Shown here: piece after piece, positions 2,218-48,007 of the stretch
Numbering within the stretch: position 1 is the stretch's first letter
Layout: every line of letters starts with the position of its first letter
IMG/VR virus record: IMGVR_UViG_3300017971_000034
Location: 6,822 to 70,821 of that record
Direction: 5' to 3' (one strand)
Length of the DNA: 64,000 nt
DNA from: a virus
The notes under the pieces: model-generated
Seen by the model: the letters and a program-made list of their open reading frames with translations, nothing else
Told to the model about the DNA's origin: nothing
Databases searched by the model: none
Position numbers and translations under genes: made by a program

Positions 2218-2229
2218 ATCCGCACCTCC

Positions 2230-31270: not shown

Positions 31271-31284
31271 CGCGACCTACCTGT

Positions 31285-31314
31285 ATTAAAACATAATTCC
31301 ATATTCCGTGTCAA
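31285..31314 (-). promoter_or_regulatory. sigma70-type promoter
   Basis: TTGACA-N18-TTTAAT with extended TG. Confidence 0.6.
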
Positions 31315-31672
31315 GCATTAAATTACTACAAACGAAACGAGAACAACCGCCGCACAACCACACCTCCCCGCACCCGGTAACGGGACCACCAAAACCGGAA
31401 ACGTCTAACCAGGTACCGTTCACCGGGAGGGGAGACACCCGCGCCACGAACAGGTCGAACAGCTCCCGCACCCTGGATAGAGCCTCGACGGCCTCGTCCA
31501 CGGACAGGTCCCGACCCGCACAGTCGCCGGACCACTCGCTGCGGAGGTCCGAGAACAACGCCGCGCCCTCCTCACCGGCGACATGGTACGCTACCTCGGA
31601 CAACTCCTCAACGAGGGCGGCCAAGCACCCCGTATAGCTACAGGTACCCCGACCCCCCACGGTGACCGTTAC
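31286..31672 (-). CDS. Hypothetical protein (start uncertain)
   Basis: Fills the gap after the PurA-family gene. Confidence 0.4.
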   Translation of the reverse strand, partial: VTVTVGGRGTCSYTGCLAALVEELSEVAYHVAGEEGAALFSDLRSEWSGDCAGRDLSVDEAVEALSRVRELFDLFVARVSPLPVNGTWLDVSGFGGPVTGCGEVWLCGGCSRFVCSNLMLDTEYGIMF

Positions 31673-32742
31673 CACGGGAACGACCGACGCCACACGGTAT
31701 CGGCTACCCGCGGGCCGGTAGACAGGATATCGAAGGGGCGCCCCACCAGGGACTCGTTGTTCCGGATCCAGTCCCTGGTCTTGGTAGATAGACGGCCCCA
31801 TTCGCACACCCCCCTATCCTCGTGGTTCAGGTAGTCGACGAAGGTCAGCGCCAGCCGCGTCGGTTGACATACCGTAACGGCCCTCCTGACCTCCAACGGG
31901 TCGAACAACGCAACGCGGCGGGTACGCTTCGACACGGTCGTCTGCTCGACGATCGGCTCCGGGGACCCGGAAAACTCCGTAACCTCCTCCCACGTGGTCT
32001 CCCTACCCATGGGGCCGCTAGTTCCTGACCCAACCGACGGTACGCGGATGGGGAAGGTACGCACCACCATTACGACCTCGTTAACCAGGTGCGGGGCCAC
32101 CCCCACCTCGGAACACACCACCGCCGGGCTGGTATCGCGCGAGGTAACGTACGGGTAGTACCCGTAGTAGGAGCTGAGGCCGAACCCCTGCGTACCCTCC
32201 AACAGGATGTTGCGGCCCTCGGTACGGGCTTCGTCCACCACCGACGGAACGTCCCCCAGGTACCTCTGGAAGCGCGGTTCGTCACCCGCCAGCGGGACGT
32301 CCCGCCTGCCGCGGTCCAGTATACGGCGGGCCAGGGCCTCGCCGGTTCCCTCGGCCGTGGACCCTATGCGGTCCCGCAGCGACCCCTCCGGAGAATTCCC
32401 GTCGTCGACGTGACCCTCGCGCCTCATATCCTCCCGCGTTACCAGACTAGCGCGCGGGTCGATAACGAGGCGGTCGGGCCCCAACCCGAACCTGGCTATC
32501 TCCTCGCACAGTACGTCCGGCTGCAGTACCGCCCCGGGGCCGATGGCCATCCGCAGGTGCCGATAACACGCACCAGAAGGGAGACTGCGCGTAACGTGGA
32601 ACGCGCCGTTCGGACCCTCGAACACGTGCCCCGCGTTGGGGCCGCCACCGCGTACCGACAGGTCCGCCCCCTGAGCCAGCATACCGGCCACCTTGCCCTT
32701 CCCCTCGGAACCGAACTGGCCACCCACCACCACCGTTATCAT
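31669..32742 (-). CDS. purZ: PurA-family synthetase with PurZ0-type signatures (probable diaminopurine/Z pathway)
   Basis: GGQFGSEGKG (Ser at the PurA Asp13 position), NAGH, EGTQG, YPYVTSRD, RTFPIRV, SGP, TTVSKRTRRV, TFVD. Confidence 0.8.
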   Translation of the reverse strand: MITVVVGGQFGSEGKGKVAGMLAQGADLSVRGGGPNAGHVFEGPNGAFHVTRSLPSGACYRHLRMAIGPGAVLQPDVLCEEIARFGLGPDRLVIDPRASLVTREDMRREGHVDDGNSPEGSLRDRIGSTAEGTGEALARRILDRGRRDVPLAGDEPRFQRYLGDVPSVVDEARTEGRNILLEGTQGFGLSSYYGYYPYVTSRDTSPAVVCSEVGVAPHLVNEVVMVVRTFPIRVPSVGSGTSGPMGRETTWEEVTEFSGSPEPIVEQTTVSKRTRRVALFDPLEVRRAVTVCQPTRLALTFVDYLNHEDRGVCEWGRLSTKTRDWIRNNESLVGRPFDILSTGPRVADTVWRRSFPW

Positions 32743-32743
32743 C

Positions 32744-33589
32744 TCACTCCTCCTCGTCTATGTCTGGATAGGGGGTGTAACAGCGGCACACCTCCCCGGT
32801 TATTGGAGACTGGGCGTACCTCTCCCCGAGGCGCCCGCCGCCCCTCATCCGCTCACAGGCAGCGCGTACCTTCCGCCACCGCTTGGGATACGGAAGGTAC
32901 GTCAACCGTGCGGAGAACGGCTCCACGTAGCACAGTTCGGCCAGCAACACGCCGACCGATATACACGGCTCCGACGCGGCACCGCCGTCCCACCCCCCGT
33001 AGTAGAAGTCCACGATGAGCGAGACCGCCTCCGGGAGGGTCTTAGCGTCCGACAAGACCCCCGCCAACCCGGCGCGGGAGACTGCTTTAGTGGGGGTTTC
33101 CGGCTCATCGGGGACCTTCTTGGAGGCCCCCCTACCGGTACCGGCCCTAACGGCACTCTTGGCGGCCCTCTTGGCGTACAACTTCTCAAGCGGGGTTAGC
33201 GCGGGACCGCCCCTCTCCAGCGACGAGGTAAGCTTCTCGCGCAGCTCCTCGGTACTGTCCGAGTGGGTATACGGCACCCCGACCTTGTTCAAAACGCGAC
33301 AAACCTGCCCGCGGTCCATGTGGGCAACGTTCAACTGCTCCTCCCGGCTGTAATAGTTTAGGGTATGGGTCCCGAACCACGTGACGGTAACCGAGCACCG
33401 GCTACCGCTGCGCACGCGGACCTTGACCAATCCGAGGATGCGGAGGTAGTCGACCAGGGAAGGCCGACCTTCGGATATGCTCTCGCTAACCCAACACCGC
33501 CGCCGGTCCCGGCAACGGTCGTTTATGGCCCTTAGCAGGGCCAGCTCCGACACCCTGAGTTCCGGTATTTCGACCATCTTCCTCTCCAA
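32744..33589 (-). CDS. Hypothetical protein
   Basis: Long ORF behind a promoter, co-transcribed with purZ. Confidence 0.6.
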   Translation of the reverse strand: MERKMVEIPELRVSELALLRAINDRCRDRRRCWVSESISEGRPSLVDYLRILGLVKVRVRSGSRCSVTVTWFGTHTLNYYSREEQLNVAHMDRGQVCRVLNKVGVPYTHSDSTEELREKLTSSLERGGPALTPLEKLYAKRAAKSAVRAGTGRGASKKVPDEPETPTKAVSRAGLAGVLSDAKTLPEAVSLIVDFYYGGWDGGAASEPCISVGVLLAELCYVEPFSARLTYLPYPKRWRKVRAACERMRGGGRLGERYAQSPITGEVCRCYTPYPDIDEEE

Positions 33590-33606
33590 CGAAAACCACC
33601 CGTTGG

Positions 33607-33636
33607 ATTAGAACACAGAGATATACATCTTGTCAA
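33607..33636 (-). promoter_or_regulatory. sigma70-type promoter of the purZ operon
   Basis: TTGACA-N18-TCTAAT with extended TG. Confidence 0.6.
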
Positions 33637-33659
33637 GTATATGTCCCTATCCCTTGCCT

Positions 33660-33830
33660 CTCGAACCCCCTGAAATAACTCCGCAAAGACCGCCGCCACG
33701 TTCTCCGCCTTAACCCTGGGTAAAGCACCTCTACCAATAGTTCCGGTGGACAACCATGTTCCCGCCACGGGAGGCGACTATCCAACCAATGCTCATCGGC
33801 CCATACCAGCAACGTCTCGGAATCAACCAT
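33660..33830 (-). pseudogene. Frameshifted partial duplicate of the MutY-like gene N-terminus
   Basis: MVDSETLLVWADEHWLDSRLPWREHGCPPEL then, in another frame, GALPRVKAENVAAVFAELFQGVR; parallels the 26826-27491 product. Confidence 0.85.
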
Positions 33831-34161
33831 CTCCGTTCCCGTTGAACTCACGGCGAATACTTTCGACGAGTTCTTCAGCAAGCTTCTCTATTACCGCCAT
33901 CCGAACACGGCCCGCGGCTTCTTCAACACGATGATACCGCTGCCGCATCCTAGCTAGAAGCCCCAACTCATCCGAACTGAAGGGGGCTACCATGTCGTAA
34001 GCATCACTAAGATCCTGACGCAAAATTAACTGGTCGACGTCACTTAGAATGCCAGACAAAAAAACCTGCCTGATAGCCCAACCCATCTTGTAAAGGTTTA
34101 CTACGGCCAGCGTTCTATCGTTAGCAGCCAAAGCTGCCCTTACATGATACTTGCTACTCAT
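33823..34161 (-). CDS. Hypothetical protein (AT-richer)
   Basis: GGAGG RBS. Confidence 0.6.
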   Translation of the reverse strand: MSSKYHVRAALAANDRTLAVVNLYKMGWAIRQVFLSGILSDVDQLILRQDLSDAYDMVAPFSSDELGLLARMRQRYHRVEEAAGRVRMAVIEKLAEELVESIRREFNGNGDG

Positions 34162-34240
34162 TTTCCCTCCCCTTGTCTACACAAACACACCGGCCGTCCC
34201 CTTACCTTCCTACACCGCAGGCAACGATACTCAGTAGGTG

Positions 34241-34669
34241 TTAGGTGACAACAGCTTGATCTTCCCGGAGAGCCTCGCAAGATCGCTTGTAGAGGACAGA
34301 CGTGTTGACGGCGGGGATGTAGTGCCCGCAGACGTACAGTCGTAGAATCTCCAGCCAGTAGTAATACAGCACCTTCCAGAGCACCTTTCGCATCGGGCGC
34401 CCATTACGATCATGGGTCACCTTGATCAGTACGCAGTCACGGTTACTGATGTGGTGAATCGGAGTGTTACGATCGGGATGCTGCCAGAACTTCCGGCCGG
34501 ACCCACTGTGGTCGTAATCGTAGACGGGGATCACCTCGTCGCCGTCGCGGGTGACCCAGCCACGCCCGGTCGTGACAAAGCGACCGGAGGTCACTACAAC
34601 GCCCGTCCAAGGAGCGTTATGGTGACTACGAACCCGAGTCCCGGGTCGTAGGCGTTCGGACTTGGCCAT
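34241..34669 (-). CDS. Hypothetical protein
   Basis: ORF with ATG; composition differs from flanks. Confidence 0.55.
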   Translation of the reverse strand: MAKSERLRPGTRVRSHHNAPWTGVVVTSGRFVTTGRGWVTRDGDEVIPVYDYDHSGSGRKFWQHPDRNTPIHHISNRDCVLIKVTHDRNGRPMRKVLWKVLYYYWLEILRLYVCGHYIPAVNTSVLYKRSCEALREDQAVVT

Positions 34670-34678
34670 GTCACCCCC

Positions 34679-35446
34679 CTACAGGAAGCGGTTATGGGGG
34701 AGGCACGCGTACGCTTTCGCATCCTTCAAGGTCGCGAAGAGACGGAAGGCGAACTCCTCACCGTCGTGGCGATCGAGCCTCCAGTAGGACTGACTGCAGG
34801 TGTAACCGGCCTGCTTGGTGATCGTCCACGTGCCACAGGCGGTCTTGTAACTACCGTCGAGCTGACGAGACCACTTCAGGCCGTCCATGCGCTTCAAGAA
34901 CTCGACCGCCGCCGCGGCCATCCTAGCGCGGTAGTTGACGTAACCAGGTGACCGGGAAAGCCTGGCGGCCAGGGCTCTCACCACCTCGACGGGGTCGTCG
35001 GAACCTACCCCGAACCGTTCCGCCAGCACGGCCAGGCCAAGGTCCCTGGACCCCGGTTCGGGACAGGGGCGGACAGCCTCACCGACCGGGCACCACCGGG
35101 ATACGGTAGGGCGGGCTATCCCAAGGACGTCCGACACGGTCTGGGCAGAGAACCCCGCCGCCACCAAGGCCTCGGCCCGGGCCCGGCGCAGGTCGGGCGG
35201 GCGTACGTTGCCCTCACCCCTAAAGTACAGGCACCGGTTTTGGAAATCGTCGCGGGTGAGGCGCTCCCGAACACACTCCACCAAACTGCGGTGGAGCAGC
35301 CTAGACTCTGAAACGTTTAGGGAAGGGGACGCGGGAGGCTGGAAGCTTATCACGGCGTGTTGCCTACCGAGCGCGTCCTTGCACGCCTCCAGAAGGTCCC
35401 GGGGCAGTACCTCGTCAGCCTGTAAATACCTGTAGGAACCCATCAA
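34679..35446 (-). CDS. HTH-containing hypothetical protein
   Basis: GFSAQTVSDVLGIARPTVSRW. Confidence 0.6.
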   Translation of the reverse strand: MMGSYRYLQADEVLPRDLLEACKDALGRQHAVISFQPPASPSLNVSESRLLHRSLVECVRERLTRDDFQNRCLYFRGEGNVRPPDLRRARAEALVAAGFSAQTVSDVLGIARPTVSRWCPVGEAVRPCPEPGSRDLGLAVLAERFGVGSDDPVEVVRALAARLSRSPGYVNYRARMAAAAVEFLKRMDGLKWSRQLDGSYKTACGTWTITKQAGYTCSQSYWRLDRHDGEEFAFRLFATLKDAKAYACLPHNRFL

Positions 35447-35742
35447 CGCCCCACCACGTCCGCCAGCATCATCACAAAATTGGCCACGTCAGCCGCCTCC
35501 TCCAACACCCTAGCCGGGTCCAGGTCCTTACGAACCTTTGGAGATACCCCCCTACCCCACGCCGACCGCCGGATTACCTCCGCCTCAAGCTCCGCCAGCT
35601 CCTCCCGAGCACGGTACAGGAGCCAGAACGGATTACAATCGGACCAACCACCCTTATGGTCGTTCAGGCGGAGCTTGCGCTCCATCTCGCGCGCGAAGCT
35701 CCTTACCTCGGGGCGCACTTCCTCTCCGAACCCTTCGTCCAT
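35443..35742 (-). CDS. MazG-like nucleotide pyrophosphohydrolase-fold protein
   Basis: EELAEL...EEAADVANF motif; AGGAGG RBS. Confidence 0.6.
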   Translation of the reverse strand: MDEGFGEEVRPEVRSFAREMERKLRLNDHKGGWSDCNPFWLLYRAREELAELEAEVIRRSAWGRGVSPKVRKDLDPARVLEEAADVANFVMMLADVVGR

Positions 35743-35806
35743 CCCGCACCTCCTAACCCAAAAAAGCACACCGCCCAGGCCTAGTCAAGGATTACGAACA
35801 ACTCCC

Positions 35807-35835
35807 TTGACAAGGAGGAAGAAGAAGGATACCAT
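35807..35835 (+). promoter_or_regulatory. sigma70-type promoter at the strand switch
   Basis: TTGACA-N17-TACCAT; ATG begins 8 nt after the -10. Confidence 0.7.
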
Positions 35836-35842
35836 AAGCGGC

Positions 35843-36217
35843 ATGGGTAATAGCCAACGACGGAAGGGGGCGCGCTTCGAACGGGACACGGCCAACCACT
35901 ACCGCACCCTACTGGGACGCGACGAAGTTAGGCGAGGGCTGCAGGACCGGGAGAAACCGTCCGAATGCGACGTTGAGGGGTTTAACCTACTCTTCGTCGA
36001 GACCAAGAACCAGAGGGTGGTAAACCCGAGGGCGGCGCTGGAACAAGCGCGCGACCAGGCAGCCGGGTTGGGGGACGGAAGGATACCGGTGGTGGTATTT
36101 CAAGAGGCACCCAGGGCCGGCAGGGTCAGGAAGGGGGACCGTACCTACGTCATCATGTACCGGGGTGGGTTCGACGAATTACTACTAAAACTGCAGGAAG
36201 CGGGGGTGGAACCGTGA
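35843..36217 (+). CDS. Holliday junction resolvase-like PD-(D/E)XK nuclease
   Basis: RRKGARFER...CDV...FVETKN. Confidence 0.8.
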   Translation: MGNSQRRKGARFERDTANHYRTLLGRDEVRRGLQDREKPSECDVEGFNLLFVETKNQRVVNPRAALEQARDQAAGLGDGRIPVVVFQEAPRAGRVRKGDRTYVIMYRGGFDELLLKLQEAGVEP

Positions 36218-36624
36218 CGGACTACGGCTGGCTATACGAACCCTGGCCACGGATTGAGAAGTGGAAGGGGTGCAGACCGGTAACCAAGGCCACCAACCCG
36301 CCGGGGGTAACGCTAACCGAGCGCGTCCGCAACGCCCTGGGAAGTTCGTTCTCGCGGTGGATGGACGTGTTATTGATGACACCCCCCCAGCTCCTACGGA
36401 TCAGGAACCTCGGGCCGGCCTCCCTCCGCGACCTACAGTGCGGGTTGGCAGAGGTGGGCCTGGCCCTCGCACCGGAACCGGGCCGCGCGATGAACCGGCT
36501 CCAGGTCGAACACGTTCACCGGAAGGCCTCGGAGCTCCTGCGCGAGACCCCGGAGGATCCGTACCTGCTGGGGATGGTAACGGCATACGAGCACGTACTC
36601 GGTATAGGAAATACCGAACCGTGA
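36214..36624 (+). CDS. RNA polymerase alpha-CTD-like protein
   Basis: LTERVRNAL...LLRIRNLGPASLRDL. Confidence 0.75.
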   Translation: MTDYGWLYEPWPRIEKWKGCRPVTKATNPPGVTLTERVRNALGSSFSRWMDVLLMTPPQLLRIRNLGPASLRDLQCGLAEVGLALAPEPGRAMNRLQVEHVHRKASELLRETPEDPYLLGMVTAYEHVLGIGNTEP

Positions 36625-37991
36625 AGCTAACCATCGACAACGTCTCGACCACCGTAGAAACAGACGAAGACGAGCTAGGGTGGCTGCGGGAATACCTAAC
36701 GTACGAGGTGCCGGGGTACGACCCCAGGTCCCGCAAGCGGTACGTGGAGAGGTATTGCTCCCTGAGTAGAGAAAGGTTTCCATCCGGACTGGTAGAGATG
36801 GTGGAGGTAGCCGCCGCCGAAGACGAGGGGTTCTACGTTGAGCGGGTGGATAAGCGCAACCGCCCCACCGATGAATTCAGAGAGGACCGACTGGGGTGGC
36901 TGTACGATTACCAGCTAAAGGGCGTCCGAGCGGCCCACCGGAGCACCCGCGGGATACTAAGCCTGGCCACGGGGTCCGGTAAGACCGAGATAGGGATCGG
37001 ACTGTCCCTAGCGATACCGGTAAAGTGGCTGTTCCTGGTAGACTCCAAGGACCTGATGTACCAGACCGCGGCCAGGTACCACAACCGGACCGGGCTAGTC
37101 GCCGGAACTATCGGAGACGGCAGATGGGGTGAGTACCCGGGACACGGCGTTAGCGGCCTCAACTGCGCCACCTTCCAGACCCTGTACCGGCACCTGGACG
37201 ACGAGAGAACGCAAAGGCTGCTGGCGTCCACCGGAGGACTGATAGTGGACGAGGCCCACACCCTGCCAGCATCTACCTTCTGGCGCGTCTCCCAAGCGTG
37301 CGGGGCCTACTGGCGCCTGGGACTATCGGCCACACCCCTGGACCGCGAGGACCGCAGGTCCATACTGACGGTGGCGGCCCTGGGCCCCATCATATACCGG
37401 GTGCCGCCCCAGGACCTGATAGCCGCGGGGGCCGTGGCCCGGCCCAGGATCACCATGGTACCGTACCAACACCCTCGACCTACCCCGGGGTCCCGCAGGA
37501 AGTGGGACAAGGTGTACAGGGACGGTGTATCCCGCAACGCCCACCGCAACCGGTTTACGGCATCGGTGGTGGTGCGGGCCGCGAAACCGTCCCTGGTGTT
37601 CGTAAAGCACACCAAGCACCTGTTCTCCCTGCAGGCAGCGCTACAACAAGAGGGGTTGGTTACCGAGGTGGCCCACGGGAAGCACTCCAGCTGGAAGCGC
37701 AGGGAGACGATGGAGGCTGCCAACAGAGGCGACGTCGACGCCGTAGTGTGCACGGTGGTGTTCCAGAAGGGTATCGATATACCCGAACTACGCAGCGTCG
37801 TAAACGCCGCCGCCGGCAGGTCCGCCATAGCCTCCCTACAACGGCTGGGGCGCGGTATGAGGAACACCCCCAGCAAGGACGAGTTCGAACTGTGGGACAT
37901 CGCCGACGAGGGCGACCCGATGTTGGAGAAGCACTCCCGAACACGTGAGAAGACGTACAGGGACGAGGGATACGAGGTTAGGAGAGCATGA
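36621..37991 (+). CDS. SF2 helicase (UvsW-like)
   Basis: YDYQ, TGSGKT, DEAH, SAT, GIDIP, QRLGRGMR. Confidence 0.93.
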   Translation: MKLTIDNVSTTVETDEDELGWLREYLTYEVPGYDPRSRKRYVERYCSLSRERFPSGLVEMVEVAAAEDEGFYVERVDKRNRPTDEFREDRLGWLYDYQLKGVRAAHRSTRGILSLATGSGKTEIGIGLSLAIPVKWLFLVDSKDLMYQTAARYHNRTGLVAGTIGDGRWGEYPGHGVSGLNCATFQTLYRHLDDERTQRLLASTGGLIVDEAHTLPASTFWRVSQACGAYWRLGLSATPLDREDRRSILTVAALGPIIYRVPPQDLIAAGAVARPRITMVPYQHPRPTPGSRRKWDKVYRDGVSRNAHRNRFTASVVVRAAKPSLVFVKHTKHLFSLQAALQQEGLVTEVAHGKHSSWKRRETMEAANRGDVDAVVCTVVFQKGIDIPELRSVVNAAAGRSAIASLQRLGRGMRNTPSKDEFELWDIADEGDPMLEKHSRTREKTYRDEGYEVRRA

Positions 37992-38596
37992 AGAACGACA
38001 CCGTACCAATACCGACCGCGTCCGGGCTGCTATTCGATCCGCTGAAGCCGACCCCGGACGGGATAAGGGCCGTCGACGTAGCCCACGCGCTGGCCAACAA
38101 GTGCCGGTATACCGGCCATACGAGGGTGTTCTACAGCGTCGCCGAACATAGTGTTAGGGTATCGCAGTACCTGCGCGAGGGGGGCGTGTGCCGGGAGGGG
38201 CAGCTATGGGGCCTGCTACACGACTGCGGCGAGGCCTACCTACCGGACATAGCTTCCCCGGTAAAGCCGCACGTGTGGATACGCATCCCCGGTACGGGAA
38301 CAGACATACCCTTCGAGGAAGCCGAGAGGAACGTCCTGAGGGCCGTAGCCGAGGCCCTAACCGTCCCCTGGGAAGGGCACGACCGGTGGGCAGCGACCGT
38401 GAAGGAGGCCGACCTGGCCATACTGTCCTGGGAAGTCAGGGCGCTGCTGCCCCCCATACCCGGTTATTGGCGGGAGGCCGACAGAACCCTGAACAGATCC
38501 CCGCCGGCAGCCCCCGAACTTTCCGGAGCTCCGGGGTGGAAACCGCGGGTAGCCCGCGACGAGTTCCTGGTCTCGCTAGGTTCCCTGCTGGGGTGA
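37988..38596 (+). CDS. HD-domain deoxynucleotide phosphohydrolase (YfbR/YfdR-like; possible DatZ function)
   Basis: AHALA..CRYTGH..YSVAEHS, LLHD.GEAY..D, KEAD. Confidence 0.85.
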   Translation: MKNDTVPIPTASGLLFDPLKPTPDGIRAVDVAHALANKCRYTGHTRVFYSVAEHSVRVSQYLREGGVCREGQLWGLLHDCGEAYLPDIASPVKPHVWIRIPGTGTDIPFEEAERNVLRAVAEALTVPWEGHDRWAATVKEADLAILSWEVRALLPPIPGYWREADRTLNRSPPAAPELSGAPGWKPRVARDEFLVSLGSLLG

Positions 38597-38639
38597 GAAA
38601 CGAATGGCCTACGGGACCTTCCGAGACACCACTTCCCCC

Positions 38640-38900
38640 CATAGCGCGCGCGGATGCGCGCGGCTTGGAAACGCGCCCACACGGTGTAAGAACGCGCGCC
38701 TCAGCGCGTACCAAACACCGCGCGCGGGCGCGCGGGCGCGCGCGCTTTCACAGAAAACTTTTTCTTTTTCTTTGAAAAAGAAAACGTTTCCTGTAGTTCT
38801 TTAACTTTTTTTCAAAGAAAAAAAGAAAAGAACGCCGCAGTTCGAAACGTGCGGCCTTCTTATTTTTTTTCTTCACCTGGGGGCGCTTCGCGCCCCATCT
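38640..38900. other. Candidate replication origin
   Basis: The most AT-rich tract I saw in the window (about 38746-38873), with inverted repeats; preceded by GCGCGC runs; upstream of the helicase, primase and polymerase genes. Confidence 0.55.
38844..38874 (+). terminator. Hairpin plus T-run
   Basis: GCCGCA-N10-TGCGGC followed by CTTCTTATTTTTTT. Confidence 0.5.
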
Positions 38901-38970
38901 AACATACATACCCCTTCCTACGGCATACCGAGATGTGCTAACCTAGCCGGTTGAAGGAGGAGAGCCTAGA

Positions 38971-39663: not shown

Positions 39664-39720
39664 AGAATCTCAGGGACCGCGACCGCACCGCCCAACGCAA
39701 GCTTCAGGAAGAAAGAAACG

Positions 39721-41073
39721 ATGACTGAGGGGTACGGGTTCGATCCCGCCTTCGAGGCGGCGGTGGTACTGACGTTAACCCAGAGTCACCGGTTCTACGG
39801 GATGGCTGGTCACTACGTGGACCCGGAACTACTATCCTGTAAGGAGGCATCGTGGCTGTGTACGGCGGCCCACGCCGTTTACAAGGACTCTGGAAGGGGA
39901 CCGGAATCTTCCATTCTGGTGGTGCAGCGTCTGCGCCGGTGGATGAACGCTGGCAGGTTGACCTTCGAAGCGTTGGAGGCCGCGGTAAACTACCTGAACC
40001 GGGCCGAGGACGATGGCCTGCCGAACGAAGATGCCATCCTGGTCGAGCTGGTACCGGTCCTGAAGCGGAGGTACGAACACCGCGTGGCCCGAGCCGGCCT
40101 CGACAACTACTCCAAGCGGGGCGACTTCGGGGAGGTGGTAAAGCTCCTGGAGGAGGCCCGCCGGATAGGGGAGAACGACGTATCGCTGGGTTCCCAACTC
40201 GGCAGCGACAGCTTCCGGGATATAGAGGCGCTGCGCCACCTAGACCGGCTTCCGACCGGAATCGACGACCTGGACCTGGCGATGAGCGGGGGGATGCCGA
40301 GGGGACTGACGGGGGTCGTCATGGGGGGCACCGGCGAGGGCAAGTCGATGTTCCTGTCCCAGGTGGCGTCCTACAACCTGCTGAACGGTCTGATGGTGTG
40401 CTACGCCGTGGTATCGGACCTGGACGAGGCGGACGTTAAGGCGCGCATGATCGCTAACCTGACGGGAACCCCGATCGACGCCGTCATGGCCGGGTCGGAC
40501 GAGGCCAGGTTCAGGCTCGCGGCGCTGGAACCGAAGCTCGGTATCGGCATGGTGAAGGAGTTCACGGAGGACGTTACCGCGGTGGCCGATATTCTGGAGT
40601 GGGTATCGGCCTGCCAGGACTACCACGGGCGCCGCTGCGACCTGCTGGTGGTGGACTACGCGGACCGCCTGGCGGCCCCCGCCGAGAAGTCGGAGTACAA
40701 CGCTATGAAGGTCGTGTACGAGGCCCTACGCAAAGCTGGGAAACGCGACAAGCGGTGGACCTGGACCGCCAGCCAATCGCGAGACCGCGACGAGAAATCC
40801 AAGCGTATCAAGACCCACCGGGACGCGGCCGACAGCATCAACAAGGCGCGCGTTGTCGACGCGTGGATCACGCTGAACGTGTGGGAGTCGGAGTCCAGCC
40901 CGACGGGACTGGATCAGTACTTCTTCATATCGAAGTTCAGGAAGGGCAGGGCCCGCGTCAAGGTCGGCCCGCTGGAGGTAGAGTACGAACTGGGGCGGGT
41001 AGCGCCGTCCCGCACCCTGGAGAAACTACACCAGGGTACCGGTAGCGGGAGGCGTGCCGCGTGGGTGCTGTAG
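39721..41073 (+). CDS. dnaB: DnaB-like replicative helicase
   Basis: PTGIDDLD, GGTGEGKS, VVDYAD, WTASQ, KFR. Confidence 0.9.
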   Translation: MTEGYGFDPAFEAAVVLTLTQSHRFYGMAGHYVDPELLSCKEASWLCTAAHAVYKDSGRGPESSILVVQRLRRWMNAGRLTFEALEAAVNYLNRAEDDGLPNEDAILVELVPVLKRRYEHRVARAGLDNYSKRGDFGEVVKLLEEARRIGENDVSLGSQLGSDSFRDIEALRHLDRLPTGIDDLDLAMSGGMPRGLTGVVMGGTGEGKSMFLSQVASYNLLNGLMVCYAVVSDLDEADVKARMIANLTGTPIDAVMAGSDEARFRLAALEPKLGIGMVKEFTEDVTAVADILEWVSACQDYHGRRCDLLVVDYADRLAAPAEKSEYNAMKVVYEALRKAGKRDKRWTWTASQSRDRDEKSKRIKTHRDAADSINKARVVDAWITLNVWESESSPTGLDQYFFISKFRKGRARVKVGPLEVEYELGRVAPSRTLEKLHQGTGSGRRAAWVL

Positions 41074-41496
41074 GTGAGCGGGGCCTTCGCCAGTATAGCC
41101 GAGGTAATAGAGGAGCTGCGGCGCAGGGCCGGGGTTCACGAAACGTTAACCGCCAAGGAACGGTGGGGTGGCGGTATCCCCACGTGGGGGGACGACATGG
41201 GCGCAGCCATAGAGAGCGAGTTTGACTTCGACAAGGACGACCTGCCCGGCGCTGACGAACTCAACGCGTGGGTCGCCAAACTATCCCCGGCGTGCCTGGT
41301 CAACCTCAGCGCGTGGGACCTGTCGGCGCTGGCGGACACCGTTAAGATGATCGTCAACGACCGCCTGGACCACCTCCACGACTACGTCAAGGACGTGCTA
41401 TTAGAAACAACATTCGGAGTACCGAACAAGGCGCTGACTTTAAAAGAGGAAAAAACCCTAGCGGTGTTGTCACGCCTCGAACGGTGCCGCCTGTAG
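41074..41496 (+). CDS. Hypothetical protein
   Basis: Between helicase and primase. Confidence 0.55.
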   Translation: MSGAFASIAEVIEELRRRAGVHETLTAKERWGGGIPTWGDDMGAAIESEFDFDKDDLPGADELNAWVAKLSPACLVNLSAWDLSALADTVKMIVNDRLDHLHDYVKDVLLETTFGVPNKALTLKEEKTLAVLSRLERCRL

Positions 41497-41540
41497 TATG
41501 TCCCTTGACAAAGTACCAACAGGTGTGGCCCGATAAACAC

Positions 41541-42386
41541 ATGGACGCCGCAATCCTAAATGCTATAGCGGACATGAACCCGTCGAGTAGCGGATGGTTC
41601 CGCGCCAACTGCCCGTTCTGCGAACAGCGCGTCGGCAAGGTCGACCGGCAACGGTGCCTGGCCGTCAACGTTAGAACCGGCCGCTACATGTGCTGGCGCT
41701 GTGAGGTCAGGGGCTCGGTCCCGGTAGAGGTACTGTCCCACCAGGACCGGGCGGTAACCGTCGTCGACCACGGCCACCGCTACCTCGGGAAGCCCGAAGG
41801 GTTCTACCGGCTCGGGGGTCGCCCTCCCCTATCGCTGCGGCGCGCCGCCCTCTACTTGGATAAACGGAGGGTGCCGCGCTCCGCGGTCCGGGAGCTGGGG
41901 ATCGGTGCGGCCGTGAGCGGGTACCTGTCGCACCGGGTGGTGGTCCCGGTTAAGGGTTACGGTAGTAGGTGGTTAGGGTGGGTGGCCAGGTCGTATAGCG
42001 GCGCCGAACCGCGCTACCTGTACCCCCCCGGGATGAGGAGGGGCGAGCTCCTCTTCAACGAGGCGCGCCTAACCTGGGATACGGACTCCCCGGCGCTGCT
42101 GGTTGAGGGCGTCATGGATGCCCTGCCACACTGGCCGCACGCCGTCGCATGTCTCGGGAAGCCTAGCCGGTGGCAGAAGGAACGCCTGCGGTCCGCCGAT
42201 TGCCCGATAGCCGTAGCACTAGACTCGGACGCACAAGACGAAGGATGGGCGCTGGCGATGGAGCTACGGCTCTACGGTCGGCGCGCCGGTTTCGTGAAGC
42301 TACCGCCCGGGAAGGACCCGGGCGACATGACCGACACCGGACGGTTGCTGGAAGCCGCCGTGAGGTCGATCTACGAGGAGGTCTAA
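41541..42386 (+). CDS. DNA primase (zinc finger plus TOPRIM)
   Basis: CPFC..CWRC, VEGVMD, LDSDA, KDPGD. Confidence 0.9.
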   Translation: MDAAILNAIADMNPSSSGWFRANCPFCEQRVGKVDRQRCLAVNVRTGRYMCWRCEVRGSVPVEVLSHQDRAVTVVDHGHRYLGKPEGFYRLGGRPPLSLRRAALYLDKRRVPRSAVRELGIGAAVSGYLSHRVVVPVKGYGSRWLGWVARSYSGAEPRYLYPPGMRRGELLFNEARLTWDTDSPALLVEGVMDALPHWPHAVACLGKPSRWQKERLRSADCPIAVALDSDAQDEGWALAMELRLYGRRAGFVKLPPGKDPGDMTDTGRLLEAAVRSIYEEV

Positions 42387-42387
42387 A

Positions 42388-43098
42388 GTGATCAAACAGC
42401 TCGGTTTCGTTACCGAAATTCATGGTGAGACGCCGGACGAGGGTAGGCGCTGCGTCTTCGCCACCAACGACGTTAAAGTACAGACGCTGTACGTGGAGAA
42501 CGTATCGTACGACGAGGCCGTGGCTATCGTCGCGTGGTTCGACAACAAAACATCCGAGGATCTCGTTACGGTCTCCAGCCGCGCCATCGGTGACGCCGAC
42601 TACACCGAGGCCGATCCCAAACCCGTCTTGGCGGTCGGTCCCGAATCAAAGGCGGGGCGCTCGCGGAGCAAGGCTGACCAGAAGGTTGGGTGTACAACCG
42701 GGATCTCGGAAACGACCCCGTACGACGAGACCGAAGCCGACCCCGAGCCAAAGGCGAAGAAGACGAGGGGATCGGCGAAAAGGAAGAAGAAGTCAAAGGG
42801 ATCCGAGAAGGCGAAGAAGGCGACCGATATCGATCCCAGCGACGCCGCGGAACGCCTGCGGAACGAGACCTCCGAAAAACTGGACAAGACCCCGCCCAAC
42901 GGGGTTCCGGAGGAGCTCCTGGAGGTAAACCAGATCAAGCAGGTGGTACTATATTTCGTGAACCTCGGCATGGGCCCTGACGACATCGACGAGGTCACCG
43001 AGACCTGCGAGGTGTGGAAGGAGTCCATACCGGCGCTGGCAAGGGTAAAGGCAAACCTGCGCGACCGCCTACACCGCCTGCTGACCATCCACGGATGA
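42388..43098 (+). CDS. Hypothetical protein with Lys-rich linker
   Basis: Operon packing. Confidence 0.6.
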   Translation: MIKQLGFVTEIHGETPDEGRRCVFATNDVKVQTLYVENVSYDEAVAIVAWFDNKTSEDLVTVSSRAIGDADYTEADPKPVLAVGPESKAGRSRSKADQKVGCTTGISETTPYDETEADPEPKAKKTRGSAKRKKKSKGSEKAKKATDIDPSDAAERLRNETSEKLDKTPPNGVPEELLEVNQIKQVVLYFVNLGMGPDDIDEVTETCEVWKESIPALARVKANLRDRLHRLLTIHG

Positions 43099-45566
43099 AG
43101 AGGATACCCCTGTACGACCGCTCCTTCGGGCTCCCGGTCTCCGACTATTCCTCCGCGCTCGATACCGACCCCCGGTGCGAGCGGTGCGAGCTGCACCGCG
43201 GAACCGGGCACGTCTGCCTACCGGCCGAAGGGCAACCGGGGGGCCTGCTGGTAGTGGGCGGGGCGGTATCGAAGGCCGACGACCGCGCCGGTAGGCCGTA
43301 CTCCGGGACTACCGGAGGGTACCTGCGCCGCCTGTTGCGGGACGCTTACGGGGGCCCAGTGGCCCTAACCTACGCCGTTCGCTGCAACCCGCGGCGCGGA
43401 AGGGTGGCCACCAAGCACGTTAACGCCTGCCGTCCCTACCTATCCGGCGTCCTGGGAGACGCCGACCCGGAGCGCGTGGTCCTCCTCGGCGGAATCGCCG
43501 CTGAGGGATTCGTCGGGTACCCGGTCCACCCTACGAGCGCGCGCGGCGGCTATATATACACCGGGGACGCCGTACCGGTCTTCTACCTCCCTTGGCCCGG
43601 TCCCCAGGTACAGGGTAACAGGTTCTACCGGGCAGAGTTCGAGGAGGACCTGCGGTGGGCCTTGGAAACCGACCCCGCCCTCCCCCCGTGGCGCGGTAGC
43701 TCACTGGTGGTGGAGGACGAATTGGACGCCGCCGAAGCCGTCGCGGTATTGGAGACGGTCGGTAGGTTCTCCTTCGACTGCGAGACGTACGGTCGGCAAC
43801 ACGACGAGGACTTCCGGTTACTGTGCGTAGCCTGTTCCCCGGAAGGGTTCGACGACGCGTACGTTTGGCCGGAGGCTGCCCTGCGGGACCCCGGCATCTC
43901 CGGCTACCTGAAGAGGTTGATGGCTAACCCGCGGGTCGTTAAGGACGGTCACAACGTCAAGTACGACCAGGAGAGCGTGTGGTTAGCTATGGGGGTTGAG
44001 GTCGAGGGCATCTTCGGCGATACCCGGGTGTGGCGGCGCATGGTCGAAACGGAGGCTAGCGGCAGGTTGGAGGACGTTGCCGAGTTGGTGGGTATGGGCG
44101 GTCACAAGAGGGAGGCCAAGTACTACGTGGACCGGGCGAAGCGCAGGCTGAGGGCCCAGGATAAGGAAACCTCCGTCCTGGGCGGGTGGTACCGCGGTAA
44201 GAACTACGACCGCTACGCCTACGCCGCCGTTCCAGACGATACCCTGCACCGGTACGTGGCCCTGGACGCGGTCTCCACCCAGAGGTTGACCGCGCACCTG
44301 TGGGGGGAGCTGGGGGAAGCCGGCCTGCAGCACGTGTGGGAAGACCAGCTTAGGGACGCTAGCTGGGCCCTCGGGTGGGTAGAGAGGTGGGGGATGCCGG
44401 TCGACCGAGACCAGGCCCGGCTAGCCACCGAATACGTAAATTCCCGCCTGGCGGAACTGGACGGCAGGCTCCGCCACTACGGCGACATCAACTTCAACTC
44501 GGTGCCGCAACTGTCCGACCTACTGTTCAACCAGCTCGGGCTTCGCACCACCGTCCTTACCGGAACCGGGAAGCCGAGTACCGGTAAGGAGGCGCTCGCA
44601 GAGATGGAGGGGCAGCACCCGATAGTGGCCAACCTGCGGGAACACAAACGGTTGGAGGCCCTACGCACCAAGTTTATCGTCCCTATCGGTGAACACACCT
44701 GCGACGATGGCCGGGTCCACCCCGCGCTATTGTTGGACGGTACGGGAACCGGGCGCCTGTCGTGCAGGGAGCCGAACCTGCAGGCCATCAAGAAGGGGGA
44801 CAAGGGCGACGAGGAGCGCATGATGCGCAACATCTTCGCTGCCCCCGCCGGCCGCAAGCTGGTACAGTTCGACTACAGCCAGATGGAGCTCCGGATAGCG
44901 GCGGCCATCAGCGGGGACGAGGCGATGAAGGAGGTGTTCCTGTCGGGAAAGGACTACCACGCCCGGACGGCTGCCTTCATACAGGATCTGGTGCCGTTCC
45001 AGGTGGACCGACGCATGGCCAAGGCGGTCAATTTCGGCCTCATCAACGGTGTAGGAGACGCACGCATAGCGCACGACCTGAAGATCACCGAAGCACAGGC
45101 TGCTAGCATCCGGAAGGCCATTACGTCCAAATTCCACGGGTACGCTTCCTGGGTGCGCCGTACCGTGTACGAGTCCACCAAGTCCGGATTCGCCCATACC
45201 GTCTGGGGACCGGACCTGAGCAGGTCCCGCCGCCGCAAGATCTACAACATCGGGAGCCCAAACTCCGCCCAGAAGCACAACGGAACCATAGCCGCCTACA
45301 ATACCGCGGTGCAGGGGACGGCCTCGGACTACTGCCTGGCCTCCCTCGTGGAGGTATGTAGGTGGATCCACGACGACGCGGTCCCGGCGAAACTCATCCT
45401 GCAGATACACGACGCGCTAGTACTGGAGTGCGGCGAGGACGCGGTGGACGAGGTACTGTACCAGGTTAACAGGATCATGACGTCCTGGCCGTCTATGGGT
45501 GTCCCCCTGAAGGTAGACGCCGAGGTCGGCCCGTCGTGGGGGGAGATGGAGGAAGTGAGGCTGTGA
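43095..45566 (+). CDS. polA: Family A DNA polymerase with N-terminal UDG-like domain and 3'-5' exonuclease
   Basis: CERCELH/VRCNP UDG4-like domain; FDCET, HNVKYD; TGRLS, DYSQMELR, RRMAKAVNFG, IHDA. Confidence 0.95.
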   Translation: MKRIPLYDRSFGLPVSDYSSALDTDPRCERCELHRGTGHVCLPAEGQPGGLLVVGGAVSKADDRAGRPYSGTTGGYLRRLLRDAYGGPVALTYAVRCNPRRGRVATKHVNACRPYLSGVLGDADPERVVLLGGIAAEGFVGYPVHPTSARGGYIYTGDAVPVFYLPWPGPQVQGNRFYRAEFEEDLRWALETDPALPPWRGSSLVVEDELDAAEAVAVLETVGRFSFDCETYGRQHDEDFRLLCVACSPEGFDDAYVWPEAALRDPGISGYLKRLMANPRVVKDGHNVKYDQESVWLAMGVEVEGIFGDTRVWRRMVETEASGRLEDVAELVGMGGHKREAKYYVDRAKRRLRAQDKETSVLGGWYRGKNYDRYAYAAVPDDTLHRYVALDAVSTQRLTAHLWGELGEAGLQHVWEDQLRDASWALGWVERWGMPVDRDQARLATEYVNSRLAELDGRLRHYGDINFNSVPQLSDLLFNQLGLRTTVLTGTGKPSTGKEALAEMEGQHPIVANLREHKRLEALRTKFIVPIGEHTCDDGRVHPALLLDGTGTGRLSCREPNLQAIKKGDKGDEERMMRNIFAAPAGRKLVQFDYSQMELRIAAAISGDEAMKEVFLSGKDYHARTAAFIQDLVPFQVDRRMAKAVNFGLINGVGDARIAHDLKITEAQAASIRKAITSKFHGYASWVRRTVYESTKSGFAHTVWGPDLSRSRRRKIYNIGSPNSAQKHNGTIAAYNTAVQGTASDYCLASLVEVCRWIHDDAVPAKLILQIHDALVLECGEDAVDEVLYQVNRIMTSWPSMGVPLKVDAEVGPSWGEMEEVRL

Positions 45567-45662
45567 CTAAATGTTGCGGTACGGAGGCCCGAAATGCGAC
45601 GTCACACCGTCTACATTTCTTGAAGACGGTCTTCTCTACTGCGAGAACGAAGCTGGGGACCC

Positions 45663-46154
45663 ATGATCGAGTGCTGTCTGTCGAGCTATGACGCCGACCC
45701 GTGTCAGTTTCATACTTGTAAGATGGTGCGAGCCGTGAAGACGCACCAGTGCTATGAGTGTGGCGAACAGGTCGACGTCGGGGAGCTACACGAGTATGTG
45801 TTCGTGGTCGACCAGGACGGAAATTCAGAGTCGATTCGGACGTGCGTCGTGTGCCTGGCCGTCCGCAACGACCACGACTGCGGGGATGGATACATCTACG
45901 GTGCGCTGTGGGACACGCTGCGTGAGTGCTACGGGACAGAGGTAGTCGATGATCCGGAGGACCATGACCCCGACGACCCCCACACTAACCCATGGGAGCC
46001 GCCCCCAACGTGTGGATCGACCACGGCGTACTACGCGCATCACTGGAGGCGAGATAGTGATCAATGGGTGTGTGGGCGATGCGGTCTCGGTTGGATACCT
46101 AGGTCACTGCAGGCGCTGGCTGACAACTTCCGTCAAGTCAACCAGGACGACTAA
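45663..46154 (+). CDS. Cys-rich hypothetical protein
   Basis: HQCYECG..RTCVVC. Confidence 0.6.
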   Translation: MIECCLSSYDADPCQFHTCKMVRAVKTHQCYECGEQVDVGELHEYVFVVDQDGNSESIRTCVVCLAVRNDHDCGDGYIYGALWDTLRECYGTEVVDDPEDHDPDDPHTNPWEPPPTCGSTTAYYAHHWRRDSDQWVCGRCGLGWIPRSLQALADNFRQVNQDD

Positions 46155-46405
46155 TGAGGTACGTTCCCGGTAACTGGACGCGCTCAAACGTCGAGATGGT
46201 ACTGCTGGGGGTACAGGGTAGGGTGAAGCGCGGGGACGTCCGGCAACTGGTGCTGGCCCAGCGCCACTCCACCAAACCAACCGAGGTAAGGGAGCGGATC
46301 GTCCAAGTTGTTGGTGACGTACCCCGCCTAGAAATATTCGCCAGGGAGGTAGTGCCGGGGTGGGACCACCACGGCAACGAACTACCGGGAGGGGTAGAGA
46401 TATGA
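46154..46405 (+). pseudogene. C-terminal remnant of an MT-A70-family adenine methyltransferase
   Basis: GNWTRSNVE..HSTKP..RLEIFARE..GWDHHGNE; the catalytic DPPW half is absent. Confidence 0.75.
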
Positions 46406-46761
46406 GTAAAACCTCGCGAGCGTTGGACCACCGCGGCCCCGTATGGGGACAGGTGGCTGAGCTGATCGATCTGTGGAAGGACGGCGGTTCGTGTAGCAGT
46501 ACCGACCTCGCCACCGACATACTGGAGGTCGTTAGGCGGGTCCTGGCCAACCAGGGTCAGGACGGCCCCGAGCAGTTGGTATGCTGTTTCCGGGGATGCG
46601 ACGAGGTCGCCGAGTGGGCCCTGACACCCTGTGACGGTACCTCCCGACAACGAGCAGGACACTACACGCACGTCTGCGACGAGCACGTCGGGAAGCTGCT
46701 GTCGTGCGGCCGCGGAATCGACTGGAGCGTTAGCCCGCTCGGTGGACGGGATGAAGGATAA
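46402..46761 (+). CDS. Hypothetical protein
   Basis: ATGA overlap with the preceding ORF. Confidence 0.5.
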   Translation: MSKTSRALDHRGPVWGQVAELIDLWKDGGSCSSTDLATDILEVVRRVLANQGQDGPEQLVCCFRGCDEVAEWALTPCDGTSRQRAGHYTHVCDEHVGKLLSCGRGIDWSVSPLGGRDEG

Positions 46762-47356
46762 GCACATCCGGGCGCGTATCGAGGCCTGCCTGGCGCTGGC
46801 AGCCTGCTCCAACTGCCCACGCGGGAAGCACGGGGCGATGTTGCTGGACCCGGAGCGCAACGTAGTACTGGCCGACGGTTACAACGGTGCCCCCCGCGGG
46901 GGCGGGGAGCTGTGCGGCGGTTCGTACTGTTTACGCAACGGCCTAGACCGTACCTCCATGCACATCCTGCCGGAGGGTGGCGACCTAACCATACAGGTGG
47001 ACGGTCGCGTCCTAGAACGCTACCCTAAGACGACCCGCAACCGCGACCTGTGGGCCCGTATGGACGCGCTGGCCACGCCACCGATCCCGTCCGGTACCAA
47101 CACCGAGGTAGGGTGCCACCACGCCGAGATGAACGTCATCTGCAACGCCGCCGCCAACGGTACGGCGACCAAGGGAGGGTGGCTCATCGTAACGGGCGAG
47201 CCCTGCCGCATGTGCGCAAAGCTCATCCACCATGCCGGAATCGTCAAGGTATTGGTGGTTAACGGCGGGTACGGTGGCCCGAACGGTGTAGGGTACCTGC
47301 GCAAACACGGCGTCGAAGTAACATCGTACTCCGTATCCGACAGGGGGATAACGTGA
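46751..47356 (+). CDS. dCMP deaminase
   Basis: SNC.R..HGA, GYNGAP, HAEMN, PCRMC. Confidence 0.92.
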   Translation: MKDKHIRARIEACLALAACSNCPRGKHGAMLLDPERNVVLADGYNGAPRGGGELCGGSYCLRNGLDRTSMHILPEGGDLTIQVDGRVLERYPKTTRNRDLWARMDALATPPIPSGTNTEVGCHHAEMNVICNAAANGTATKGGWLIVTGEPCRMCAKLIHHAGIVKVLVVNGGYGGPNGVGYLRKHGVEVTSYSVSDRGIT

Positions 47357-47937
47357 GCGCGTGTTCCAGGTGCGGGTACGTACCGTGCCGGTGCGGGTGG
47401 GTAGGGGACCAGGACAACAGCGTCGTGCGTCGCAACGTGGAGACGGAGTGCGAGCGGTGCGGCGCCTCCGTTACCGTCGATACCTTCTCACCGCACCCGT
47501 ATTTGTGCTCCGGATGCTCCAAACCGTCGCCGGAGAACCTCCTACCGGTAGTCTGCGGCGACTGCGGGGATACGTTCATGGGGGACCCCGGAGAGCGGTC
47601 CACCTGCCCGGATTGCGACCCCGACCGTTTCACGAAGCACGACGGCGGCAAACCGGACCTGGCGCTGTGGCCGCCGCGCGCCTTCGAATCGGTGGGGAGG
47701 GTGCTCACCTACGGTATCAAGAAGTACGCTCCCGGTAACTGGCGCAAGGTTAACGAGCTGCGCCGCTACTACAGCGCCGCCCTCCGGCACCTCTTCGCCA
47801 GGCTGCGCGGTGAGCGTTTGGACTCGGAGAGCGGGCTACCGCACCTGGCGCACGCGGTGTGCTGCCTGGCGTTCCTCCTAGAGTTGGAGGAAGAGGAGCT
47901 AGAACCTACCCCAGAACGAACGAGGGCGATGTGGTAA
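47353..47937 (+). CDS. Zinc ribbons plus DUF5664 (dATP/dGTP diphosphohydrolase-type) domain
   Basis: KHDGGKP..VLTYG.KKY...NWRK..AALRHL..D.ESGLPHLAHA. Confidence 0.85.
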   Translation: MSACSRCGYVPCRCGWVGDQDNSVVRRNVETECERCGASVTVDTFSPHPYLCSGCSKPSPENLLPVVCGDCGDTFMGDPGERSTCPDCDPDRFTKHDGGKPDLALWPPRAFESVGRVLTYGIKKYAPGNWRKVNELRRYYSAALRHLFARLRGERLDSESGLPHLAHAVCCLAFLLELEEEELEPTPERTRAMW

Positions 47938-48007
47938 CCACCGTAACAATCGTTAGCGGTACGTTCCGTCGTGCCTGCGGAGTGGTTTTACCGGAGAGGG
48001 ACGAACC

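Follow-up and report, generated by a model that had tools for sequence, protein, structure and literature searches.

A serine-type PurA homologue of a third, deep lineage in a contractile-tailed phage and its possible link to a 2-aminoadenine genome

Background

Phages known to have genomes containing 2-aminoadenine (Z) use two lineages of synthetase, PurZ and PurZ0, each with a fixed set of helper genes. Whether a phage with a related enzyme of another type may also carry Z in its DNA is the question raised by the IMG/VR virus record IMGVR_UViG_3300017971_000034, of which a stretch of 64,000 nucleotides was analysed (the window; bases 6822-70821 of the 70,821-bp record). The gene concerned encodes a short homologue of adenylosuccinate synthetase (PurA) with Ser in place of the catalytic Asp13, and its product is referred to below as the query. 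A preliminary description had taken Ser and the accompanying motifs as marks of PurZ or PurZ0 and had proposed that the genome replaces adenine with Z. The first claim failed, as the query falls far below the cut-off of the curated PurZ model and forms a separate branch in the trees; judged by its sequence, it represents a deep lineage of its own within the Ser clade, a third one beside PurZ and PurZ0. The second stood in part, with the Ser-clade enzyme and a DUF5664 protein speaking for it, and the position outside PurZ and PurZ0 and the lack of the usual helpers speaking against it. We consider, with moderate confidence, that a Z-containing genome is the single most likely reading, because of the chemistry of the Ser clade, the residues of the dGMP pocket, the DUF5664 enzyme and the location of the gene in a replication module.

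Results and discussion

Active-site residues of the PurA homologue

The query matches the Pfam family Adenylsucc_synt (PF00709; Table 1), and every motif quoted in the preliminary description was found: GGQFGSEGKG at residues 7-16 (with Ser12 replacing Asp13), RTFPIRV at 228-234, SGP at 242-244, TTVSK at 268-272, and TFVD with Asp303, the Asp of the TxxD motif. The query was aligned with PurZ of phages phiVC8, S-2L and SH-Ab, PurZ0 of Ghobes and Korra, archaeal and bacterial PurA, and cellular relatives that also have Ser (cellular Ser types). Residues F12, S14, T262, W252, P233, F295 and Y298 of phiVC8 PurZ are all matched in the query; of these, F12, S14 and T262, which line the pocket for dGMP's 2-amino group, correspond to F10, S12 and T268. 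The roles of the pocket residues were described in the preprint 10.1101/2025.10.22.683976 (section 8), according to which the mutation S14D eliminates substrate selectivity. The same Phe, Ser and Thr are likewise present in the cellular Ser types, and therefore these residues fail to separate the groups.

Comparison with PurZ of phiVC8 (PDB 6FM1), S-2L (7ODX) and SH-Ab 15497 showed that, besides the pocket residues, W252, P233 and the aromatic pair F295/Y298, the query shares with S-2L and SH-Ab the site of an insertion that follows the IRV strand. In contrast to these enzymes, it keeps Asp303 (TFVDY, versus NFCNY in phiVC8, NFAQY in S-2L and NFANY in SH-Ab, so that PurZ has Asn or Gln at this position), and thus does not show the loss of Asp seen in the ATP type; it also keeps the C-terminal STGP and reads GSEGKG rather than GSTGKG. 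PurZ0 of the Gordonia phages Ghobes and Archimedes (7VF6, which is PurZ0 according to PMC12884076) and of the Arthrobacter phage Wayne resembles the query in the Ser at Asp13, the P-loop GSE(G/A)KG, TTV(T/S)K and the Asp in TxxD, as well as in its length of about 360 amino acids, its short archaeal-type architecture and the PolA encoded by the phage itself. However, PurZ0 has F/M and Q where the query has F301 and Y304. With the guanine-type Asp of PurA and PurZ0 and the aromatic pair of PurZ, the nucleotide site of the query is therefore a hybrid.

The short archaeal PurA (Pyrococcus horikoshii 2D7U/5K7X; PRK04293) is the best sequence match and shares the length class and the GTP-site residues, but differs in the catalytic Asp, in GTVTGR where the query has TTVSKR, and in belonging to a separate clade. 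The cellular Ser types, such as a 534-aa kinase fusion of Terriglobus roseus and a 357-aa protein of Paenibacillus ginsengihumi, share GGQ(F/Y)GSEGKG, FxDY and STGP with the query, at 41-47% identity.

Since the guanine-type Asp is kept, GTP would be the likelier phosphate donor of the query. PurZ0, which was defined by Tong et al. in 2023, uses GTP. PurZ uses (d)ATP (PMC8342488); in that paper the S-2L triad was shown to yield Z-containing plasmid DNA in E. coli. Section 24 of PMC12884076 prints the preference of PurZ0 and PurZ as 'ATP and GTP, respectively', which is the reverse of PMC8342488 and probably a slip in word order.

Phylogenetic position

Three trees were built, one with FastTree (192 rows) and two with IQ-TREE on the same 101 rows (a quick and a careful search). 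All three separated long bacterial-type PurA, short archaeal Asp-type PurA and a Ser clade holding the query and all known PurZ and PurZ0. The archaeal Asp-type PurA split off with support of 96-100, and the Ser clade was supported at 99-100 (Shimodaira-Hasegawa-like, SH-like) and at 97/98 (bootstrap/SH approximate likelihood ratio test, SH-aLRT). Inside it, the known PurZ and PurZ0 fell with viral contigs having dUTPase, PolA or PurB neighbours, the kinase-fused cellular forms made one clade (98/86), and the query and four metagenome proteins made a branch of their own (100/99; 99-100 over the trees). The nearest proteins (P0005-P0008) are 49-52% identical to the query; a metagenome scan found nothing above 46% identity among the matches listed, and a viral scan with P0006 nothing above 40%. 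The closest PurZ-like protein in public phage records has 35.5% identity to the query.

Grouping with canonical PurA, which had been named as a check on the proposal, was thus not observed: the query is in the Ser clade, yet with neither PurZ nor PurZ0. In the terms of PMC12884076 (section 24) its sequence puts it in the 'PurZ group' and in neither named subgroup. The same section mentions basal archaeal sequences, which the placement of the query resembles, and Fig. S8 or Table S3 of that paper might already contain the query lineage.

A possible route to Z

The gene lies in a module for replication and nucleotide metabolism made up of two divergent operons, with their junction near 36 kb, which also encodes a helicase, a DnaB-like helicase, a primase, a gp32-like single-stranded DNA-binding protein, a UvsX-like recombinase and SbcCD. 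The genes at issue had been described as scattered over 16 kb; the spread is real, yet all of them are within this single module. The location of the gene and the phage's own proofreading PolA both favour a Z-containing genome.

In such a phage, the query would condense dGMP with aspartate to N6-succino-2-amino-dAMP, which host PurB and host kinases would convert to dZTP. The DUF5664 protein would lower dATP and feed the synthetase, the HD-domain protein, which resembles deoxynucleoside monophosphate (dNMP) phosphatases, may remove dAMP, and the phage polymerase would replicate the DNA with A partly or fully replaced by Z. All substrates in this scheme, and Z in the DNA, are predicted.

The identification of the DUF5664 protein was correct. 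It scored 103.4 bits against a Pfam gathering threshold of 27, matched phrog_801 at 3e-37, and gave BLAST matches to gp40 of SH-Ab 15497 (5e-10) and gp51 of Korra (2e-9). The DUF5664 enzyme of Wayne alone converts dATP, dGTP and dUTP to dNMPs (PMC12884076, section 20), and therefore one gene could both lower dATP and supply dGMP. A metaGPA study found the DUF5664 N-terminal domain directly linked to a PurA domain on dZ-enriched contigs. The DUF5664 domain of the phage protein is preceded by about 90 residues (47353-47640) with at least five CxxC pairs, zinc-ribbon-like, which the compared DUF5664 homologues do not have. Directly upstream, and overlapping the start of the gene, is a dCMP deaminase gene.

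The small protein at the head of the leftward operon, whose true start is probably at residue 10 of the open reading frame, had been called MazG-like. Its ESM-Atlas look-alikes agree with this in fold (PRA-PH, DUF1599, MazG-like and DUF5664 proteins; TM 0.5-0.75), but it has no Pfam, NCBIfam or PDB match, and the all-alpha NTP pyrophosphatase fold suggested by the look-alikes is a lead only.

The phage-encoded PolA was confirmed as a fusion joining a uracil-DNA glycosylase (UDG)-like domain, a 3'-5' exonuclease and a family-A DNA polymerase, with nearest phage relatives at no more than 31% identity. As a candidate for DpoZ, the Z-selective PolA of some Z phages, it was rejected: it scored 108 and 71 on the DpoZ models NF038380 and NF038381 (cut-offs 500 and 350), and its O-helix RRMAKAVNFGLING (residues 666-679, window 45009-45050) has Asn at the position of Klenow Tyr766 (motif B4). 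In the alignment this position is Phe in four known DpoZ and mostly Tyr in PolAs encoded beside Ser-PurA genes; the viral PolA beside the Ser-PurA of contig L014 also has Asn. Phe at B4 is unique to the two DpoZ clusters and is unlikely to cause adenine discrimination, and DpoZ is dispensable for a Z genome, S-2L attaining full substitution without it (PMC10201439).

Points against a Z genome

The following results weigh against the Z-containing genome. On the NCBIfam PurZ model NF038379 (cut-off 300) the query scored 198.5 bits, whereas the known enzymes all exceeded the cut-off (Ghobes 346, Korra 365, phiVC8 397 and S-2L 350), a true archaeal PurA reached 184, barely below the query, and the cellular Ser types reached 204-214. 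On the archaeal-type PurA model PRK04293 the query had 282.8 bits (cut-off 368) and on the canonical PurA model TIGR00184 205 (cut-off 396), so that it is under every PurA cut-off as well. By the curated model the query is thus not PurZ. The PurZ and archaeal-type PurA scores of the Terriglobus protein (204/304) and of the Paenibacillus protein (214/358) show the same pattern as those of the query. Among PDB entries the best match was the P. horikoshii PurA 2d7u (184 bits), followed by phiVC8 PurZ (125), Archimedes PurZ0 (108) and S-2L PurZ (83); by sequence score the query is thus closest to archaeal PurA.

The trees pointed the same way, with the query branch outside the clade of PurZ and PurZ0 and, in the careful tree, beside the cellular forms, weakly (43-44% bootstrap). 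In favour of Z, joining the query branch to the Z-phage clade was not rejected by the approximately unbiased (AU) test (p 0.765), in which the group was chosen after the tree was seen; the constrained search for this test reached a better likelihood than the quick free search. In the 30 columns that best discriminate the Z clade (29 rows) from 80 cellular Ser types, the query was cellular-like in 11, Z-like in 4 and neither in 15, and the summed log-odds was -70.

The helpers usual in Z phages were also missing. No DatZ-type HD protein, DutZ, DmtZ, PurB or DpoZ-type polymerase was found in the complete genome, which also gave no match at E<=1 to dUTPase, dCTP deaminase (DCD), NDT, DUF550, MazG or Lyase_1, nor to the dutZ families PF00692 and PF22769. 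BLAST of the genome with the Dut proteins of Ghobes and Korra gave nothing below E 0.4, and with the helpers of S-2L, phiVC8, SH-Ab, Ghobes and Korra only the DUF5664 protein and, marginally, the HD protein. According to PMC12884076 (sections 24 and 25), dutZ is present in 98 of 98 PurZ0 genomes and dmtZ in 85 of 98, and most PurZ genomes have DatZ together with MazZ-2 or DUF550. The query genome thus differs from PurZ phages in having no DatZ, MazZ or DUF550 gene, and from PurZ0 phages in having no dutZ, dmtZ or Wayne-like DpoZ and in its contractile tail.

The HD phosphohydrolase noted in the preliminary description is present, with an H...HD...D pattern, but is not the dATP remover of the DatZ type. 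It has no Pfam match at E<=0.01, and hence no HD_3 or YfbR-like domain (PF13023/PF12917); its BLAST values to DatZ were E 0.66 (S-2L), 1.5 (phiVC8) and a marginal 0.009 (SH-Ab); and its only PDB match was Atu1052 (4e-6). DatZ was therefore rejected for this protein, which belongs instead to the T5-Dmp-like or phiKT-like dNMP phosphatases. Homologues were found in 270 phage records (among them phiKT, Rhizobium phage 16-3 and phages of Burkholderia, Stenotrophomonas and Pseudomonas), and DUF5664 in 1228, compared with 219 for a PurZ-like gene. Most carriers of the two families are phages not known to carry Z, as the preliminary description had cautioned.

No base-composition or restriction-site signature was found in the query genome, although the palindromes by themselves speak neither way. 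Both GC-only and A/T-containing palindromes had observed/expected ratios of 0.99-1.06. By comparison, GC-only palindromes are avoided in the Z phages phiVC8 and SH-Ab, at ratios of 0.71-0.73 for 4-mers and 0.3-0.4 for 6-mers, and CGCG is avoided in S-2L; CCGG was observed 0 times in SH-Ab with 111 expected, and GATC 4 times in phiVC8 with 152 expected.

A further point against Z is the abundance of cellular Ser-type paralogues of unknown function (at least 584).

The wider Ser-PurA family

The count of at least 584 came from scanning a single genome for each prokaryotic species with a pattern; the relatives were spread over many bacterial and archaeal phyla. Of 8000 candidates scored in large protein collections, 5192 were relatives at E<=1e-10, a representative search gave 611 at E<=1e-30, and a scan of IMG/VR gave 140. 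Among 268 listed PurA-like proteins, G-S-E-G-K was found in 239, G-G-E in 5, S-C in 1 and the canonical D-E in 1; 18 of the remaining 22 show a G-S or G-G P-loop in their N-termini and 4 lack the N-terminus. The motif lies more than 100 residues from the N-terminus in 60 of the 268, after a kinase-like AAA_33/AAA_18 domain. The clade with Ser for Asp13 is thus large, and much of it is cellular and uncharacterised, so that this Ser does not mark Z phages only. A canonical Asp-type PurA was also present in 9 of 10 cellular genomes tested.

Neighbouring genes were clustered for 80 viral and 80 genomic loci. The viral loci encode PolA (39 of 80), dUTPase (28) and a PurB-like lyase (12), in addition to AAA_24 and PD-(D/E)XK nuclease proteins, which is the context of a PurZ0-type cluster. 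Neither PolA nor dUTPase was found in the neighbour clusters of the genomic loci, which have DUF7002 (39 of 80), an M78 peptidase protein (35), a RNase_H_2+DUF429 protein (34) and a protein of the dCTP-deaminase fold (28). The M78 protein, which carries a DarG-like macro domain, matches CapP at 2e-21.

Two conserved operon types were observed at the cellular loci (L081-L160; for example L086 of Terriglobus roseus, L126 of Pseudomonas sp. and L138 of Xanthomonas floridensis). In one, a kinase-fused Ser-PurA is accompanied by DUF7002 and the CapP-like M78/macro-domain protein; in the other, an unfused Ser-PurA is accompanied by the RNase_H_2+DUF429 protein and the dCTP-deaminase-fold protein. 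The phage encodes none of these partner proteins. Such operons could represent a nucleotide-based system for defence or stress that is so far undescribed and has a relationship to the PurZ0+DutZ pair. A literature search found no paper on DUF7002, nor on PurA together with CapP.

In favour of a Z-containing genome, some viral contigs place Ser-type enzymes in settings resembling Z clusters. In L031 (580-5385) and its near-copy L032, both from IMG/VR, genes for PolA, a Ser-PurA (GSSGKG), dUTPase and an HD protein follow in a row; the Ser-PurA of L031 scored 200 bits on the PurZ model, and its HD protein is 51% identical to that of the window. In L006, the distance between a DUF5664 gene and the Ser-PurA is 5 kb. 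In L002 (9231-10820) and L005, a 529-aa kinase-fused Ser-PurA is encoded within a phage replication module (helicase, DnaB-like helicase, primase, PolA and recombinase) distantly related to that of the window. These contexts suggest that phages use Ser-type enzymes outside the curated set in Z-cluster-like settings, and from the score of L031/L032 the curated PurZ model probably misses Z-cluster enzymes.

Alternative explanations

The strongest alternative, somewhat less probable in our judgement than a Z-containing genome, is that the phage has canonical DNA. The query would then do the job of the cellular paralogues or counteract them, for example by reshaping the guanine/adenine pool or by disturbing a host system that is based on the homologous enzyme, and the HD, DUF5664, dCMP deaminase and PolA genes would be ordinary phage genes. 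The score pattern and the 11 cellular-like columns against 4 Z-like ones fit this explanation, as do the many cellular relatives with their conserved operons, the absence of all dedicated dATP-removal families of known Z phages, and the wide distribution of the HD and DUF5664 families in phages without known Z. However, the characterised members of the Ser clade only make succino-2-amino-dAMP, with no other function known in the clade; the dGMP 2-amino pocket has kept its residues; the gene belongs to the replication module rather than to an accessory island; and depletion of dGMP without use of the product would presumably harm the phage's own replication. The evidence does not separate the Z-containing genome from a function common to the cellular paralogues.

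A modified pyrimidine, for example one that replaces thymine as it does in SPO1, SP-10 and SP-15, which are UDG-PolA phages, with the PurA homologue incidental, is improbable. The dCMP deaminase gene overlapping the DUF5664 gene, the hydrolysis of dUTP by the Wayne DUF5664 homologue and the presence of an HD dNMP phosphatase would suit it, and UDG-PolA fusions are linked to 5-hydroxymethyluracil (5hmU) phages (PMC10201439). A route to 5hmU or to deoxyuridine, considered on account of the UDG-PolA and the dCMP deaminase, was nevertheless rejected because the complete genome contains neither a ThyA-like nor a ThyX-like gene and so offers no candidate dUMP hydroxymethylase. The UDG-like domain (window 43014-43700; family-4-like) reads GGAVS, compared with GE(A/G)PG, which we take to be the catalytic motif of family 4, and is probably inactive like those of N4-type UDG-PolAs. 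A modified pyrimidine would also leave the Ser-type synthetase unexplained.

Least probable of all is an ordinary auxiliary PurA converting IMP to adenylosuccinate for more AMP during infection: it agrees with the archaeal-type best matches in PDB and NCBIfam and with the guanine-binding Asp and STGP, but is opposed by the Ser in place of an Asp13 that is 99% conserved in the PurA clade (PMC12884076), by the scores under every PurA cut-off, by the placement in the Ser clade apart from the Asp-type archaeal enzymes, and by the change of GTVTG to TTVSK in the aspartate/ribose loop.

Implications

The Z phages described in PMC8599892 are siphoviruses and podoviruses, and a full-text literature search for PurZ together with myovirus returned no title concerning a Z myovirus. 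If the phage does have a Z-containing genome, the trait extends to contractile-tailed phages, dATP can be controlled without DatZ or DutZ, and the curated PurZ model misses whole lineages. Going further, and only tentatively, we suggest that the phage represents a third independent solution to the aminoadenine genome, in a contractile-tailed phage: a GTP-type Ser-PurA, with the zinc-ribbon-DUF5664 protein, the all-alpha pyrophosphatase and the HD phosphatase replacing DatZ, DutZ, DmtZ and MazZ, the Asn-B4 UDG-PolA as a third convergent Z-tolerant or Z-selective polymerase, and a lineage linking phage PurZ to the cellular Ser-PurA operons with CapP-like regulators. If the DNA has no Z, Ser in place of Asp13, the usual marker of PurZ, is insufficient by itself, which matters for every survey of Z phages in metagenomes.

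General features of the phage genome

With direct terminal repeats and 100% completeness by CheckV, the record is a complete phage genome of 70.8 kb. Within the window, PHROG matches were found for the major head protein, portal, protease, large terminase, baseplate wedge and baseplate/hub proteins. The earlier statement that this is a contractile-tailed phage was borne out, because both tail sheath and baseplate genes are present (Table 1); the phage is accordingly of the myovirus morphotype.

Table 1 Features of the phage genome discussed in the text
Feature	Position (window)	Strand	Matches and remarks
Tail sheath, 671 aa	Genome 1497-3512 (outside the window, in the remaining 6.8 kb)		phrog_279 at 9e-42
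Baseplate wedge	In the window		phrog_6 at 3e-28; baseplate and hub matches besides
Ser-type short PurA homologue (PurZ group, third lineage by sequence), 357 aa	31669-32742	-	PF00709 at 8e-49
Protein of unknown function, 281 aa	32744-33589	-	Directly upstream of the PurA homologue gene; its stop adjoins the start of that gene
Small protein (99-108 aa), all-alpha NTP pyrophosphatase look-alike	35443-35769	-	phrog_18269 at 7e-11, a family of unknown function; the gene heads the leftward operon
HD-domain phosphohydrolase	37988-38596	+	phrog_318 ('deoxyribonucleoside 5'-monophosphate phosphatase') at 2e-42
UDG-like + 3'-5' exonuclease + family-A DNA polymerase fusion	43014-45566	+	PF03167, PF01612, PF00476
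dCMP deaminase	46631-47356	+	PF00383 at 2e-16, phrog_174 at 4e-28; HAE and PCxxC motifs
DUF5664 protein (dATP/dGTP diphosphohydrolase N-terminal type) with Cys-rich N-terminus	47353-47937	+	PF18909 at 7e-30

The 281-aa protein encoded next to the PurA homologue had no Pfam or PHROG match, and its Atlas look-alikes, of winged-helix type, were weak and came from a model of low confidence. With PADLOC, none of the four phage proteins tested had a match. A megablast search of window positions 30000-50000 against public phage records found no match and hence no relative at the DNA level. The sequence is contained, as contigs, in two metagenome runs, one from sediment and one from seawater. The G+C content is 60-66% along the whole genome stretch. 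At the end of the rightward operon (50760-51377), a 205-aa DNA methyltransferase-like protein is encoded, which matches phrog_363 at 3e-15.

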